The notes under the pieces: model-generated
The model's database searches: none
What the model saw: only the letters and a program-made list of their open reading frames with translations
What the model was told of the DNA's origin: nothing
Made by a program: the position numbers and the translations under genes
Origin: Escherichia coli
Lineage (GTDB): Bacteria; Pseudomonadota; Gammaproteobacteria; Enterobacterales; Enterobacteriaceae
Strand: one strand, 5' to 3'
Assembly (NCBI RefSeq): GCF_024700885.2
Contig: NZ_CP117016.1
DNA length: 64,000 nucleotides
Shown: piece by piece, positions 19,437 through 38,276 of the stretch
How the letters are laid out: each line of letters begins with the position of its first letter
Numbering within the stretch: position 1 is the first letter of the stretch

Positions 19437-20041
19437 CAGGACAACCTCGCAATGGTAAACTCGTCAACCGGTGGCTGTGGTTCCTGTGATTCATTCTGGC
19501 TATGCGAGCCAGCACTAAGAATCACGCGATTGTACATATTGAGGGCAAACGTACCGAGGTCTGCATTCCCAGTCAGCGCCATGTTAATAGCTGCCGCAAG
19601 ACGCCAGGCCAACGCCTCCATAAAAATGGCATCAAACATGTTCACATCTGTAACACGAGAGACATACTTGAGCCATGCCTGAGGCTGGTCTGTGTAGATC
19701 AACTTTCCTGTTCCGTTGGTGTCTACACCTACTTCGTACTGAACGCGCATTGCTGCTGTTGGATTGCGTACACCAGGAAGCATAATTTCAGTAATGCGCA
19801 GACAATCGGACGGGTACTGATACGCATATTCCCAGTCAGGCGGTAGATTGCTCGTATCTGCAAGCGCCACGCGTTTGGTAGCAAAGTTCCAGTCAAAATC
19901 AGAAAGCACAGCATCACGGCAGGCCTCAAAGTGCAGCGAACATTCCCCCGCTTCCTTGCTGGCTTCCGTCAGGCTGTTAATGCTGCGGCTATTGCCAATA
20001 TTGGACAGCGCACGATTGCAGATCTCTACTACAGAGGCCAT
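19436..20041 (-). CDS. tail tubular protein A (T7 gp11-like)
   Basis: ~200 aa; N-terminus CNRALSNIGNSRSINSLTE resembles gp11 N-terminus. Confidence 0.7.
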   Translation of the reverse strand: MASVVEICNRALSNIGNSRSINSLTEASKEAGECSLHFEACRDAVLSDFDWNFATKRVALADTSNLPPDWEYAYQYPSDCLRITEIMLPGVRNPTAAMRVQYEVGVDTNGTGKLIYTDQPQAWLKYVSRVTDVNMFDAIFMEALAWRLAAAINMALTGNADLGTFALNMYNRVILSAGSHSQNESQEPQPPVDEFTIARLS

Positions 20042-25142: not shown

Positions 25143-25232
25143 ATCAATGACTCCGTACGCAATTAAATTATTACCAATTTAACCACATATGATTTATTTA
25201 TCGTAGATAGTTGACATTTAACGCACAAATTA

Positions 25233-25247
25233 TTACCTTTAAGGTAA
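25233..25247. promoter_or_regulatory. operator TTACC-TTTAA-GGTAA at start of head operon (with AACCACATATGA motif at 25181-25194)
   Basis: Same palindrome family as the immunity-region operators. Confidence 0.5.
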
Positions 25248-25569
25248 CTAAAGAGTTCATTCCGGTTACTAACCTGACTGGCTTGTCGTTAAATTGAACA
25301 GGTGGAGTGAGCTTTTATTTTGAGCAGTACGGCGTATGGCACATGCGCCGATAGCGGTCTGGATACGTTTAAGGGGCACCCTCCCTTGCTCGGGCAAACG
25401 AACCAGGTAGCCGGAATGTGCAAGTCGAGCGGTTTTATTCCGCGCACGGGGATTCACCATCCCGGCTATTCGGTGTGACGCCTCGGAATAGACGAGGGTA
25501 CAACGATGAGAGCATTTATGGAGCTGCGACAAAGTGTGGCGCATTAACAGGCTAAGTGCTCTCAGCGTT

Positions 25570-25646
25570 GTGGCATTAGCTCAGCTGGACAGAGCAACCG
25601 CCTTCTAAGCGGTTGGTCGCAGGTTCGAATCCTGCATGCCACGCCA
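25570..25646 (+). tRNA. tRNA-Arg (anticodon UCU), phage-encoded
   Basis: Perfect 7-bp acceptor stem GTGGCAT/ATGCCAC, D-arm GCTC..GAGC, anticodon loop CTTCTAA, T-loop GGTTCGAATCC, discriminator G and CCA. Confidence 0.9.
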
Positions 25647-25689: not shown

Positions 25690-25732
25690 GGCGGTGATGG
25701 TTTCCCTTGAAGGACTATCACCGCCCTTTTTT
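25690..25732 (+). terminator. rho-independent terminator downstream of tRNA
   Basis: 9-bp stem GGCGGTGAT / ATCACCGCC followed by T-run. Confidence 0.55.
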
Positions 25733-25942
25733 ACAGCAGGACGCCATTGCGATGACTTCATGCTGTAAACCCGTACAGCCACGGAAGGCATAACTCATTG
25801 CTTCCAGTTCGCCCGGTTCGCCGGGCATTTTTTTGGCGTGATACGTCACAATTATGATATCGATGCAGATTACGACATACATGAAAAACATGTCATAGTA
25901 TCTCCTGAGGTTAATCTCGATTCAAAAAGAGGATGATTTATA

Positions 25943-26290
25943 ATGATTAAAATCAATAACGTACGTGGTGCTAACGTTAGCGTCAACGGAGAAGACTTCA
26001 CTGGTCATCATATTACGATTAACAATGGAAAAGTGATCGTTGATGGTGTCGAAAAAAATAGCAATCTTGACGGACAGATTAACGTAACAATTAATGGAAG
26101 CGTGGAAGGCGTTGAGATTGAAAATGGATCAGTGACTGTAAGCGGTGATGCACATTATGTGAAAACTATGTCTGGTGATGTCCATTGTTCCAATGTATTG
26201 GGAAATGTAAACACCATGTCTGGAGATGTAATCTGCGAAACTGTTGGTGGAAACGCCAGCACAATGTCTGGAAATATTATCAAGAAATAA
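25943..26290 (+). CDS. small repeat-rich beta-strand protein (115 aa), moron; possibly bactofilin-like beta-helix
   Basis: Strong Shine-Dalgarno AAGAGGA; internal repeats of V/I-x-G-x-V and TMSGDV motifs; opposite strand to the surrounding operon. Confidence 0.55.
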   Translation: MIKINNVRGANVSVNGEDFTGHHITINNGKVIVDGVEKNSNLDGQINVTINGSVEGVEIENGSVTVSGDAHYVKTMSGDVHCSNVLGNVNTMSGDVICETVGGNASTMSGNIIKK

Positions 26291-26375: not shown

Positions 26376-27851
26376 TTAAGCATAGGGATCGTAATCTGTA
26401 ATGGCCTTGCCTTGCTGGTTCTGCTGACCTGGAATTCGCAGACGCTTCGACACAGGGAACGCAAACGTCAGCAGTAGCGCATCGCCTTTACCCGGCGAAC
26501 GCCCAAGCCGCTCCTTGATATCCTCCTTCGGTTCGATAACGATTTTACCGTCCACGCGAACTTTGTACTCTGCCGCCGACAGGTCGTCTGCAGTTTCCTG
26601 GTCATCCAGCATGCCGCCCAGCCTCAGCCATGTCTTGCATGAGTTGAACATCTCCCCGCGCTTGTTGAGCATCTGAGGGTCAGTTGACGCGCCACCGAAC
26701 GGAACAAGTTGCCATGTGCGCCCCCAGCCGTCACCGATTGACTTCAGGCCAGTACCGTAACCGAAGTCGATGAACACCGCGTCGGCCTGATACTGGTCTT
26801 CAAAGTCAGCGATACGCTTCGCCATAATCAGATCGTCGGTGGTCTTGTTGCCAGTCCACAGCACCTTACTGTGCAGCCCCTGCCGCAGGTATATCACCGC
26901 GTCATCAACGCCGGAGTATGCCGGGTCAACTCCGATTATCACCGGAGCATGTGCCACCTGCGCAGCGGTTACCACCCGTTTCATTGCCTCGTCAGTAAGA
27001 CCGGTAGGGATAAACTGCAATTCAGATGCATCAGGGAATATGCCACGCACACGGATTTTAACGAAGTCGCTGTCTTCCCCGTAGTCATCAACCCATTTCT
27101 GCAACTGCTGTTTGTTAGTGCCTTCCACCGTCCGGCTGTCAATCTGCGCAGTTTTCCAGCGGTGTTTATATTTGCGGAAACATTCTCGGAAACGTCCGGT
27201 ATTACGCGTCGGGTTTCCGAACGCCACCCAGATAATCTCAGTGTCTTCGTCCGTAAGCGCACCCTCGGCAACTTCCCACACCAGATCCGCAATGTTCGAC
27301 GCTTCATCGAATACCACGATGATACGTTTGCGCTCGTTGTGTAGTCCGGCGAACGCCTCAGTATTGTGCTCAGACCAGGGGATTGCGTCAGCTCGCCACC
27401 GCTTGTCGTGCCCAGGATCATTGCTGTACATCGCGGTAGCGGTACAGGTGAACCAGTCTTTCGTGATAGCAAGGTTCGACCACTTGATAATTTCCGGCCA
27501 GGTCTTCGTTCGTAGCTGGTTGTCGGTGTTGGCGGTCACCACGATCTTACAATCCTCGCAAGTGGACATGCCCCAGTTGATCAGCATTGAGATGAATGCG
27601 GATTTACCAATACCGTGACCAGAAGCGCGTGCCAGCATAAGCGGCTGATAGCGCGTCTCTGGATTCTGCAGGTGATCACGTATCTCTCGGAACGCATCAG
27701 CCTGCCACTGACGTGGGCCGGTGGCATGTGCCAGTTCAGTCCCCTCTTCCCCCCACGGGAACGCATAGAGGGCATAGCCAAGCGGATCGTGAGTGAACCC
27801 TGCAATATCCTCGATCAACTGCTCTTCAGGAGATAACGCTGTATCTGTCAC
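26376..27851 (-). CDS. terminase large subunit
   Basis: Walker A-like SGHGIGKS; ~490 aa; followed by the portal gene. Confidence 0.85.
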   Translation of the reverse strand: MTDTALSPEEQLIEDIAGFTHDPLGYALYAFPWGEEGTELAHATGPRQWQADAFREIRDHLQNPETRYQPLMLARASGHGIGKSAFISMLINWGMSTCEDCKIVVTANTDNQLRTKTWPEIIKWSNLAITKDWFTCTATAMYSNDPGHDKRWRADAIPWSEHNTEAFAGLHNERKRIIVVFDEASNIADLVWEVAEGALTDEDTEIIWVAFGNPTRNTGRFRECFRKYKHRWKTAQIDSRTVEGTNKQQLQKWVDDYGEDSDFVKIRVRGIFPDASELQFIPTGLTDEAMKRVVTAAQVAHAPVIIGVDPAYSGVDDAVIYLRQGLHSKVLWTGNKTTDDLIMAKRIADFEDQYQADAVFIDFGYGTGLKSIGDGWGRTWQLVPFGGASTDPQMLNKRGEMFNSCKTWLRLGGMLDDQETADDLSAAEYKVRVDGKIVIEPKEDIKERLGRSPGKGDALLLTFAFPVSKRLRIPGQQNQQGKAITDYDPYA

Positions 27852-28522
27852 TGATTACCATCCTGACGTTCTTTGAGTCGCTTCCTGGCTGCTGCTATGC
27901 GATCAGCAATTGTCACATTCACATTAACATCCAGACGTTCTTTGAACGCGTTGACATCAACATGCTTACCAATCAGCTCAAGGTTCTTCACCTTGTCAGG
28001 CCATTTAATTTTTTTGAGGATTGTCTCTATCGAATCCTCGTTCATGTTCATGATGGTCGATGACAGATCAAAGCCACTAAGCGTAGTGCGCCAGATTTTC
28101 GGCCACTCGCGGATTGGCTTAAGGCTCCCATCGTCGTTGAGGATGTCGATCACATCCATCTGGTCGATCTCCACCAGGCGCATAAGAACGTAATCGGCAC
28201 TGACGCGCATTCGTTTGTTGCGCTCCTCCATCAGCTCGGCAATCCGTTTTTGAATGCGTTCATCGCGCATCATGACACTGGCTTTAACTGCCGCTGTATT
28301 TGGGGAGAATCCTGCGTTAATCGCTGCCTGAGTCTGGTTTTCAGGCGTTTTGATGTATGACTGGCAATAAGCCTCCTGCATTGCTGTTAGTGGCTTAAAT
28401 TGCGTTGATTTGCGTTTATAGGTTTTAGGTTCAGCAGGCATCATAACCACCGTGGTAATAGTTACCGTTTTGGTAATAGTACCATGCAAAACAAAGCCGC
28501 CATAGTTGGCGGCAGTATTCAA
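27848..28522 (-). CDS. terminase small subunit
   Basis: Overlaps terminase large start by 4 nt; start may instead be the MMPAEPK Met at 28444. Confidence 0.6.
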   Translation of the reverse strand: MNTAANYGGFVLHGTITKTVTITTVVMMPAEPKTYKRKSTQFKPLTAMQEAYCQSYIKTPENQTQAAINAGFSPNTAAVKASVMMRDERIQKRIAELMEERNKRMRVSADYVLMRLVEIDQMDVIDILNDDGSLKPIREWPKIWRTTLSGFDLSSTIMNMNEDSIETILKKIKWPDKVKNLELIGKHVDVNAFKERLDVNVNVTIADRIAAARKRLKERQDGNQ

Positions 28523-28554
28523 AACCCATCAAATTCATCATGCATAATCTACTC

Positions 28555-28566
28555 GTGACATGTCAC
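28555..28566. repeat. 12-bp perfect palindrome GTGACATGTCAC (copy 2)
   Basis: Identical to 8370-8381; sits immediately upstream of the terminase small subunit gene. Confidence 0.8.
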
Positions 28567-28904
28567 ACTATTAATTTCGTTTCATGCCAGCCTTTAGTCA
28601 CCCAGCATTGCGAGTCACCATTACACGGGCATGAATTAACTGGAACTCTCCCGCCGCACTTACCGCAACGTTTTCTGCTGATCGATTTTATACGCCCGCG
28701 CACGCGTGCATCATCCTGGCGGATCAGTAACGCTATATACTCACCAAATTCGTAAGGCGCACGCCCGGGGCGACGCGTGGCACAGTTACGCTCCAGCATT
28801 TCAATTTCCTGAGCATCAAGCACAATTTCCAGCTTACGCACACCAGATGCAGCTTGTCTGGCTCTCTGAGCGGCTTTGCGCTCTGCTGCTGATTTAGCCA
28901 TCAA
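28563..28904 (-). CDS. basic protein with C-terminal Cys cluster (putative zinc ribbon); candidate late-gene regulator
   Basis: RCGKCGG...CPCNG motif; located just upstream of the terminase genes. Confidence 0.45.
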   Translation of the reverse strand: MMAKSAAERKAAQRARQAASGVRKLEIVLDAQEIEMLERNCATRRPGRAPYEFGEYIALLIRQDDARVRGRIKSISRKRCGKCGGRVPVNSCPCNGDSQCWVTKGWHETKLIV

Positions 28905-32214: not shown

Positions 32215-32217
32215 GAT

Positions 32218-32294
32218 TTACCTCTGAGGTAATTAAAAACCACATAAGACACGAAATCAATAGAGTTTAGAATATTTTATTACCTGATGGGTAA
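32218..32294. promoter_or_regulatory. two operators TTACC-TCTGA-GGTAA (32218-32232) and TTACC-TGATG-GGTAA (32280-32294) flanking an AACCACATAAG motif
   Basis: Palindrome family shared with the immunity region; directly upstream of the gene starting at 32214. Confidence 0.5.
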
Positions 32295-32331
32295 TTATTT
32301 GAGCGTAAAAAAATGCGCTATCGCGCTGGTA

Positions 32332-34562: not shown

Positions 34563-34625
34563 TCACCCATAAGGTAACAAAAATCAAGGATAGTTACCCA
34601 TGAGGTGCATTTACCTGTTGGGTAA
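34563..34625. promoter_or_regulatory. tripartite operator in the repressor/cro intergenic region
   Basis: TCACC-CATAA-GGTAA (34563-34577), TTACC-CATGA-GGTGC (34594-34608), TTACC-TGTTG-GGTAA (34611-34625). Confidence 0.6.
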
Positions 34626-34680
34626 TATTGCTTTAAATTGAATCATCTTCTGATTCATATATGAGGCGATTTTCCAGAAA

Positions 34681-35311: not shown

Positions 35312-35322
35312 TGTCTATTTAA

Positions 35323-35399
35323 TTACCTTGCAGGTAATTTTTTCAACTCATACCTATTGACATCAAACCAAATACGCATAATCATTACCTCAACGGTAA
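35323..35399. promoter_or_regulatory. two operators TTACC-TTGCA-GGTAA (35323-35337) and TTACC-TCAAC-GGTAA (35385-35399), OL-like
   Basis: Same palindrome family; upstream of the early-left operon. Confidence 0.55.
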
Positions 35400-35418
35400 C
35401 AAGCTGAGGTAACAAGTT

Positions 35419-37976: not shown

Positions 37977-38276
37977 GTGAGAAAGTTAAGCCGACTTGAA
38001 AAATATCACATGAACAAGGTTTCAATGCGCAGCCCTTCAAAGGTTGTTGCCGTTACTCCTGCGGCGATAGAGATCGAAAAACGCGCGATTGAAAGAGAGA
38101 AAAAAGGGCAGTTCCGCATTGCCGCCCACCTTTGGCTTCAGTGTATGGATGTTGCTTCTGGTGATGTTGAACGTGCAAGGATCGCGGTTCGCAGGGACCA
38201 ATGTATCACAAAAGGTAACGGCCTTCGCCGTGGCGACTATAGCGGCATAGGATGTTGTGGGGTGGTTTATGACTAA
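37977..38276 (+). CDS. hypothetical protein
   Basis: ORF between alpA-like and methyltransferase genes. Confidence 0.4.
   Translation: MRKLSRLEKYHMNKVSMRSPSKVVAVTPAAIEIEKRAIEREKKGQFRIAAHLWLQCMDVASGDVERARIAVRRDQCITKGNGLRRGDYSGIGCCGVVYD

Follow-up and report, generated by a model that had tools for sequence, protein, structure and literature searches.

How does a temperate phage that carries no recognisable Q antiterminator separate its early from its late genes, and does the last gene before the terminase genes take part in it? The question is raised by a 64,000-nucleotide stretch of Escherichia coli contig NZ_CP117016.1, the whole of which is called here the window. It contains a prophage of the epsilon15/phiV10/TL-2011b-like type (Uetakevirus), with minus-strand genes across the region of interest. 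The gene concerned (28563-28901, minus strand) encodes a 112-residue protein of the epsilon15 gp49 / phiV10 gp55 / N15 gp46 family, and its TGA stop codon lies inside a short perfect palindrome. The product is very probably a DNA-binding regulator, to judge from its predicted ribbon-helix-helix (RHH) fold, its zinc knuckle and the label of its family, and its place in the genome makes it probably a regulator at the early/late boundary. Taking everything together, it is read here, tentatively and with somewhat less than even confidence, as a regulator of the boundary or roadblock type that feeds back on itself through the palindrome.

The open reading frame (ORF) spans 28563-28904 on the minus strand if it is started at the TTG at 28904, which yields 113 residues, while the adjacent ATG at 28901 yields the 112-residue form that is the RefSeq annotation in TL-2011b, phiV10 and epsilon15 (gp49). 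An earlier, sequence-only reading of this stretch had described a small basic protein with a C-terminal cysteine cluster, encoded by the last gene before the terminase operon and overlapping a 12-bp palindrome at its stop, in a phage with no recognisable Q. Apart from the annotated start, which shortens the protein by one residue, this description was borne out. The ORF is real, and the 112-residue protein has a pI of 9.9 (23 Lys plus Arg versus 12 Asp plus Glu) and cysteines at positions 40, 79, 82, 91, 93 and 99 (CxxC...CxC...C). The next gene is terS (Terminase_2), with its ATG 121 nt past the stop, followed by terL. The TGA (28563-28565) is within the palindrome GTGACATGTCAC at 28555-28566, and none of the 26 prophage ORFs scanned against Pfam matched the Q or the Ogr/Delta families. 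The only other regulator-like products among those ORFs were a Rep-type helix-turn-helix repressor, an AlpA-like protein and a PerC-like protein. The gene for the last of these (37977-38276, plus strand, in the early-left operon; Pfam PerC, E 6e-07), a so-called 'transcriptional activator', is a further candidate for a positive regulator. The 112-residue gene with its flank is present in 636 of 5,426 complete E. coli genomes, where it is labelled 'hypothetical protein'; the family is already catalogued (PHROG 536; RefSeq name 'transcriptional regulator') but uncharacterised.

The evidence that carries the argument is the association between this gene and the palindrome. In the window, the copy at the stop codon (site 1, cGTGACATGTCACa, 28554-28567, core 28555-28566), taken here as the putative binding site of the 112-residue protein, is accompanied by a second exact copy at 8370-8381, against 0.004 expected by chance in 64 kb. 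This second copy (site 3, tGTGACATGTCACg, 8369-8382) overlaps the TGA stop of a 98-residue membrane ORF that closes the long structural operon, and it is directly abutted by a minus-strand intrinsic terminator (AGGCCGCTTTCGCGGCCT followed by TTTCTTT, 8345-8369). Its syntenic counterparts were located in phiV10 (19493), epsilon15 (19517) and Tyrion (20377). Each of these three phages has three syntenic copies, in surrounding DNA which is only about 80% identical: the first at the stop of the gp49-type gene, the second just past the stop of a reverse-oriented gene (p03/p50/gp53) beside the terL terminator, and the third where the structural operon ends, next to the operon's terminator. One mismatch is present in the junction copy of phiV10. 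In the epsilon15-like genomes every copy is found at a gene 3′ end, adjoining an intrinsic terminator.

The association was followed in a survey of 205 loci with 96 distinct protein variants, which amount to only about a dozen independent lineages and cover 660,657 bp. The site was found to start at position -1 of the gene's own stop codon in 82 of the 96 variants, elsewhere in the locus in 9, and not at all in 5, two of which are truncated genes. The motif GTGAC-NN-GTCAC occurred 108 times in this DNA, versus 0, 1, 0 and 0 times for four control palindromes of the same composition, and versus 0, 1 and 0 times for the variants with spacers of 1, 3 and 4 bp. A pyrimidine preceded and a purine followed the motif in 108/108 sites, which extends the element to the 14-bp YGTGAC-NN-GTCACR. 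Whole genomes contained 1-3 exact copies, with about 0.03-0.06 expected. The half-sites are invariant, while the central dinucleotide differs by lineage (AT, GC, TG, AG, CT) and is constant among the copies of one genome: AT three times in epsilon15, Tyrion and ZF40, TG/CA three times in N15, and GC twice in the locus L094. The half of the palindrome that lies beyond the stop, and is non-coding, is conserved as well as the coding half. Judged by the second exact copy and by its conservation in related and unrelated phages, the palindrome is no chance feature.

Concerning the range of phages involved, the module of gene and site was found in temperate phages of podo-, myo-, sipho- and P2-like type whose hosts are Enterobacterales, Vibrionales, Aeromonas and Pseudomonas. 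The palindrome is on the TGA in Pantoea AH07 (GTGACCTGTCAC), in the P2-like Yersinia phage vB_YenM_201.16 (TTGTGACGCGTCACAA) and in the linear plasmid prophages N15 and phiKO2 (CGTGACTGGTCACG), and also in Vibrio- and Enterovibrio-type phages with proteins of 28-35% identity; in the myovirus ZF40 it is placed 2 nt past a TAA (TGTGACATGTCACA). The own-stop site is imperfect in a Pseudomonas-type phage (one mismatch) and in an Aeromonas phage (two). Other placements were observed in more distant loci: in L090, one palindrome is 138 nt downstream of the gene and another 11 nt before terS; in L091, it coincides with the stop codon of the gene before, and the start codon of the family gene follows 4 nt later; and L094 and L102 have pairs 23 and 33 bp apart, a few kb from the gene. 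What follows the own-stop site varies, from terS to xis, to ninB-Q, or to the ATG of another gene about 15 nt on. The palindrome strings were not found in a relevant context in the literature searched, where the paper on vB_EcoP_ZX5 covers Rep, Ant and Int only.

Two loci showed further features of this kind. The Pseudomonas-type phage L209, whose own-stop site retains the 2-bp spacer with one mismatch, contains three copies of GTGAC-N1-GTCAC (2282, 6925 and 12297), with a 1-bp spacer, versus about 0.02 expected; this spacing is absent from the 661 kb of other loci. In N15 (L097), the anti-repressor operon (genes 32-30) is preceded by a terminator (28413-28435), and one palindrome (28550-28561) is located between this terminator and gene 33; another (33237) is inside repA.

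Some other roles of the palindrome were considered and discarded. An RNA hairpin or part of a terminator was ruled out, as a stem of 5 bp cannot be closed by a loop of only 2 nt and a terminator is missing near the site in most lineages; a centromere of the SopB type, as the N15 centromere palindromes are a different motif; and the core site of a tyrosine recombinase, as a 2-bp spacer is too short.

With respect to the protein, it matched PHROG 536 with E 4.6e-54 over residues 1-111 of 112, and a Pseudomonas-type member matched the same family with E 2.5e-25; the functional label of PHROG 536, 'transcriptional regulator', is an annotation only. Single-protein searches of Pfam, NCBIfam and PDB sequences gave nothing significant. 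The family comprises 724 clusters at E ≤ 1e-3 in a database clustered at 90%, and 150 representatives at 50% identity. Conservation was evaluated in an alignment of 56 diverse full-length homologues, which display an N-terminal basic motif AERKxxQRxR, with R8 and R13 almost invariant, a conserved PY..EYI..LI helix, and a conserved C-terminal motif CxKCGxxLPxGC..GDxxCW. In this motif both C79 and C82 are invariant, at least 90% of the homologues have C99, and a fourth cysteine is in a 'GC' loop column of the family consensus.

The AlphaFold2 model of the monomer (predicted local distance difference test score, 91.3) consists of a helix (5-19), an extended segment (22-28), two helices (30-42 and 52-74), the zinc knuckle (79-99) and a final helix (100-108), without strands. 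When the dimer was modelled with the same program as a tethered construct, with a flexible linker and a paired alignment of 31 sequences in which C99 is invariant (predicted template modelling score, 0.70), residues 22-28 and 159-165 became beta-strands. The predicted structure thus has the beta-alpha-alpha fold of the RHH superfamily (Arc/MetJ/CopG), and the tethered-dimer prediction has the antiparallel N-terminal ribbon of an RHH homodimer. Curated RHH models did not recognise the family significantly: only 1-2 of the 56 members touched RHH_5, RHH_1 or RepB-RCR_reg, with E 0.013-0.07. The NCBIfam model YbfE gave a weak match (E 0.05). The zinc region does not correspond to an HNH nuclease encoded beside terS in the HK97 style, a candidate that was ruled out by the lack of any HNH Pfam match and by a zinc region without conserved His or Asn, where only Cys, Pro and Gly are conserved.

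Compared to known RHH regulators (P22 Arc, Mnt, CopG and the RHH antitoxins), the phage protein is alike in the beta-alpha-alpha fold, the predicted ribbon dimer, the small size and basic character, and the link of the gene to a short dyad. It differs from them in its extra, conserved N-terminal basic helix and C-terminal zinc knuckle, and in the position of its presumed operator, on the stop codon of the gene rather than at a promoter. The fold and the comparative data argue well for the protein being an RHH dimer that is predicted to bind YGTGAC-NN-GTCACR. A variable beta-ribbon placed on the dyad, with the conserved R8, K9 and R13 contacting the outer bases, would fit the combination of invariant half-sites and variable centre.

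The region that separates the gene from the late operon is as follows. Along the minus strand, the stop codon and palindrome (28566-28555) are followed by a 41-nt spacer, by a strong intrinsic terminator (GCCGCCAACTATGGCGGC plus TTTGTTTT, 28488-28513, minus strand, with the stem at 28513-28496 and then TTTGTTTT), by two operators, and by the ATG of terS at 28441. The terminator is conserved in phiV10, epsilon15 and Tyrion, and is annotated as such in the epsilon15 and phiV10 records. The operators are of the repressor type, ATTACC-N5-GGTAAT, and are arranged in tandem directly upstream of the terS ATG (28443-28477, comprising 28477-28461 and 28459-28443) with one mismatch each. In an alignment of the window with phiV10, epsilon15 and Tyrion, palindrome and terminator are kept in 4/4 rows and the operators in the 3/3 rows that reach them, the epsilon15 row ending at the terminator and its operator being seen separately. 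An 18-nt indel in the spacer makes the distance from palindrome to terS either 120 or 102 nt among these close relatives.

terS, the first gene of the late packaging operon (27848-28441, minus strand; Pfam Terminase_2, 1.4e-29), is given here with the start of the TL-2011b RefSeq record. A longer ORF starts at a TTG at 28522, and this long form is annotated in phiV10. The start used in TL-2011b, epsilon15 and Tyrion, here the ATG at 28441, is more plausible, because the extension (28444-28522) would take in the terminator and the operators.

A search for a sigma-70 consensus promoter found none ahead of terS, the gp3-like gene or the tailspike gene. The possibility that the palindrome contributes the -35 hexamer of a late promoter (GTGACA-18 nt-CATGAT) was ruled out as a general explanation, since epsilon15, Tyrion and ZF40 do not keep the spacing of the hexamers, and the equivalent at site 3 points antisense. 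What does precede the late units is the repressor-type operator. Besides the pair at terS, an exact one (ATTACCTTTCAGGTAAT, 7997-8013; epsilon15 counterpart, 19895-19911) precedes both the tailspike gene (ATG 7893) and the gp19-like gene, which is divergent from it, and one with a single mismatch (25232-25248; epsilon15 counterpart, 2931-2947) precedes the gp3-like gene, the first of the structural operon. The same placement before late units was observed in epsilon15 and in Tyrion, which has one at the lysis cassette too. ATTACC-N5-GGTAAT is annotated as a 'repressor' protein_bind feature in the epsilon15 record, and is found in the immunity region as well. This arrangement suggests that the prophage repressor, or another reader of ATTACC-N5-GGTAAT, may control the late units directly. 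Further sites of this type are located in the window at 32217-32295, 34610-34626 and 35322-35400.

The boundary or roadblock interpretation can be developed on this basis. The small dimeric RHH protein would be the last product of the early-right operon, and its cognate site would most probably be the 14-bp YGTGAC-NN-GTCACR, with the TGA forming part of the left half-site. In epsilon15-like phages it would bind the site at its own stop and one or two other copies beside the terminators that close transcription units. At its own 3′ end, binding would limit read-through from the early operon into the downstream DNA, which here holds the terminator, the operators and terS. RNA polymerase stalled before the bound site would leave the stop codon untranscribed, giving a non-stop mRNA and a lower synthesis of the protein itself. 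The outcome would be a gene-specific negative autoregulation of a gene without a promoter of its own. The position of the sites hints at a boundary or roadblock role where transcription units end; both the sign of the effect and a feedback through the stop codon are speculative. The attraction of the interpretation is that it would explain at once why the overlap with the stop codon is conserved whatever lies downstream, why the gene tends to be the last of its operon, and why further copies are at gene 3′ ends in the epsilon15-like phages.

A precedent for such feedback may be found in LacI. Bound at O3, at the 3′ end of lacI, the repressor reportedly truncates the mRNA before its stop codon, and tagging by transfer-messenger RNA is said to provide a feedback. 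Both cases share a DNA-binding protein with a site, putative in the phage, that overlaps the 3′ end of its own gene. They differ in that the folds are unrelated, that the promoter-proximal operators are the main targets in lac, and that the phage feedback is a prediction.

Several observations weigh against the roadblock interpretation. A roadblock placed just upstream of a good intrinsic terminator looks redundant. Some palindromes of ZF40 and N15 are inside coding regions, at no obvious boundary, and two lineages (L093 and L101) have no exact site. The lack of a sigma-70 consensus before the late units may mean that a positive factor, or a read-through mechanism, is still needed. Finally, the order of gene, palindrome, terminator and late genes seen in several Q-less phages is what a positive late switch is expected to look like.

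Such a Q-like positive switch is the main rival, and it would be the more interesting outcome. It would have the last early product bind the palindrome and either let RNA polymerase pass the terminator or terminators that follow, or activate a promoter, so that the terminase, structural and lysis genes are turned on. Likewise, the sequence-only reading had considered a role as late-gene activator plausible. Part of this stands. The prophage has no Q or Ogr family protein, the fold is of a DNA-binding type, and in at least two unrelated groups of Q-less phages the family gene occupies the position of lambda Q, being the last early gene, followed by the palindrome, an intrinsic terminator and the late genes. 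The order recurs in the Q-less HK97-like phages of Vibrio, Enterovibrio, Salinivibrio and Pseudomonas, in which the gene is directly before the holin, the lysis genes, HNH and terS, and the early operon has no other detectable regulator except a Cro-like protein. A terminator was found within 200 nt downstream of the own-stop palindrome in 18/81 variants, compared to a background of 3.75%. The second palindrome of L090, so near to terS, the copies of epsilon15-like phages that abut terminators, the missing consensus promoters, and a zinc finger weakly similar to that of TraR/DksA, a family that binds RNA polymerase, point in the same direction.

The Q antiterminators of lambda, 21 and 82 resemble the present case in being encoded by the last early gene, with a DNA site just after it, an intrinsic terminator and the late genes. 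Q-lambda, too, works with a zinc finger. As for differences, there was no match of sequence or fold to any of the three Q families (which we take to be Pfam Antiterm PF03589, Phage_antitermQ PF06530 and Phage_antiter_Q PF06323), and the phage palindrome is not in a recognisable promoter. The binding element of Q is embedded in a late promoter and is followed by a sigma-dependent pause site and a terminator; in the window a terminator is 41 nt downstream of the palindrome, and hexamers resembling a promoter, with the palindrome as the -35 element, are present at site 1 but are not shared by epsilon15, Tyrion and ZF40.

Comparative evidence speaks against the Q-like switch. In N15, phiKO2 and ZF40 the family coexists with a genuine Q-like antiterminator gene, and in the Yersinia P2-like phage another regulator gene occupies the ogr position; in none of these is the family gene next to late genes, nor is it followed by a terminator. 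In N15 the ATG of the next gene is about 15 nt after the palindrome, in an intergenic gap of 21 nt, and therefore there is no room for an activated promoter. At site 2 of phiV10 the terminator precedes the palindrome in the late direction. The distances are variable too, from 0 to 177 nt between palindrome and terminator, and by 18 nt between palindrome and terS among close relatives. Moreover, the starts of the late units are marked by the repressor-type operators and not by palindromes. RHH proteins are mostly repressors, and we know of no RHH protein that is an antiterminator. So, it can be said that the late-activator idea is partly supported by the position of the gene, early/late in a Q-less phage, and is contradicted by the coexistence with Q or ogr-position genes as a general function of the family, while in the window the terminator and operators before terS also speak against it. 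The Q-like switch is considered possible, if doubtful. A version of it restricted to the Q-less temperate phages would make family and palindrome a late-switch or boundary system not described before. The RHH-zinc protein, tethered to the matS-like 14-bp site at the end of its own gene, would influence RNA polymerase during elongation at the neighbouring intrinsic terminators, whether by antitermination that depends on the site or by gating of the terminators, and epsilon15-like podoviruses as well as the HK97-like phages of Vibrio and Pseudomonas would have it in place of Q. This version is regarded as unlikely.

In these HK97-like Vibrio and Pseudomonas phages, a gene for a tyrosine-recombinase-like protein of 412-426 residues is found inside the early operon, beside or just upstream of the RHH-zinc gene and in the same orientation (L090 1193-2431, L099 3688-4968, L100 3689-4945, L206 919-2184 and L209 8039-9319), which is an unusual place for an integrase.

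Membership in the Q, Ogr/Delta or TraR/DksA families had been raised by the sequence-only reading. Profile and structure comparison place the protein in neither the Q nor the Ogr/Delta family, and leave for TraR/DksA a borderline profile similarity only. Ogr and Delta, of P2 and P4, are small transcription factors of phages which bind zinc and read DNA of partial dyad symmetry. The protein studied here is like them in being a small phage regulator of the zinc-binding type with a predicted dyad-symmetric site. It is unlike them in that none of the 56 members matched the Ogr_Delta Pfam model at E ≤ 0.1, in its RHH fold instead of an Ogr-type zinc finger, and in the presence of the family, in the Yersinia P2-like phage, besides the ogr-position gene mentioned above.

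A different alternative is inspired by the half-sites, which are identical to those of E. coli matS. The protein could be architectural, like MatP, with dimers at two or three palindromes bridged by the zinc or C-terminal domain, so as to loop or condense the phage genome (for instance, isolating terS-terL) or to interfere with the host matS/MatP system. Against it, the phage spacer is strictly of 2 bp and not of 3 as in the 13-bp matS (GTGACRNYGTCAC); the survey gave 108 N2 sites versus a single N3 site, and neither the window nor the phage genomes examined contained a 13-mer of the matS type. The protein is not similar to MatP in sequence (BLASTP E 14; hhalign E 0.22; with a MatP query verified against PDB 4d8j), and the phage model has a zinc knuckle and lacks the four-helix bundle and the coiled coil. 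The phage protein is phage-encoded, with its sites on the phage, some genomes have a single site, and the family extends to phages of Pseudomonas and Alteromonadales, hosts which, to our knowledge, lack MatP. A MatP-like function is thus improbable, and the resemblance to MatP/matS seems a matter of analogy or possibly convergence, not of family membership.

It could also be argued that the palindrome is not the target of the protein at all, being bound by some other phage or host factor or being an element associated with RNA or with terminators, and that its position on the stop codon reflects tight packing or hitch-hiking. Two of the three epsilon15-like copies are indeed at the 3′ ends of other genes, abutting terminators, and the palindrome has TGA in both orientations, so that it closes reading frames naturally. 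This is opposed by the fact that site and family occur together in at least ten phage backbones that are unrelated and differ in the neighbouring genes, with protein identities down to 28%, by the near absence of the control palindromes from the same DNA, by the equal conservation of the non-coding half, by the aptness of an RHH dimer as the reader of a short dyad, and by the impossibility of the RNA stem-loop. It is judged quite improbable.

Last, a TraR/DksA-type action, with the C-terminal helix and zinc finger entering the secondary channel of RNA polymerase for a global reprogramming of the host independent of the DNA site, is very improbable indeed. In its favour are the best matches of a PDB-sequence profile search, TraR (6n57_M, E 0.035) and YbiI (E 0.037), over residues 48-111, which are borderline, and the hhalign comparison with TraR (46% probability over 58 columns), where a helix followed by CxxCGxx(I/L)P-x-G-x3-C is shared with the first three cysteines spaced alike. 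On the other side, the fourth cysteine of the TraR/DksA finger (CxxC-x17-CxxC) is missing and a loop cysteine is present instead, there is no free coiled-coil tip, helix 52-74 being the buried helix B of the RHH core with 50 residues before it, none of the 56 members matched the zf-dskA_traR Pfam model, and structural searches found neither TraR nor DksA.

Concerning the surroundings of the other palindromes in the window, a degenerate copy with one half-site mismatch (GTGATACGTCAC, 25838-25849) is in an insert between terL and the gp3-like gene, just after a plus-strand terminator, and its position corresponds roughly to that of site 2 in epsilon15, phiV10 and Tyrion. The insert is reverse-oriented with respect to terL and the structural operon that flank it, and contains a tRNA-Arg(TCT) gene (25570-25646, plus strand), followed by terminators at 25690-25725 and 25811-25826 and then by the degenerate palindrome. 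Next to it, a plus-strand ORF of 115 residues (25943-26290), with internal 'TMSGDV/NV' repeats and no Pfam match, occupies the place of p03/p50/gp53 of phiV10, epsilon15 and Tyrion. At the other end, the reverse-oriented ORF 7966-8346 (plus strand), probably starting at Met42, is a homologue of epsilon15 gp19 (PHROG 450), weakly similar to the C-termini of anti-repressors. This ORF and the structural operon run towards each other, and palindrome site 3 and its terminator separate their ends.

As far as the literature searched shows, three things appear to be new here: the RHH plus zinc-knuckle architecture, the 14-bp palindrome with matS-type half-sites as its predicted cognate, and the conserved overlap of the latter with the stop codon of its gene. 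What was vaguely a Cys-rich protein next to terS becomes a concrete, putative protein-DNA pair, with a 14-bp site and exact genome copies, and with comparative rules of invariant half-sites, strict 2-bp spacer, lineage-specific centre and stop-codon overlap. The pair bears on the late-gene control of epsilon15/phiV10-like phages, which are common prophages of E. coli and Salmonella and in which this control, with no Q and with late units devoid of consensus promoters, is not understood. The identity of the half-sites with those of matS raises the question of a convergence, or an interference, with the system that organises the Ter region of the host. The conservation of the module in podo-, myo-, sipho- and P2-like phages makes it probable that its function is general. 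If true, the placement of a regulator's site on its own stop codon would represent an unusual autoregulation of a promoter-less gene inside an operon.

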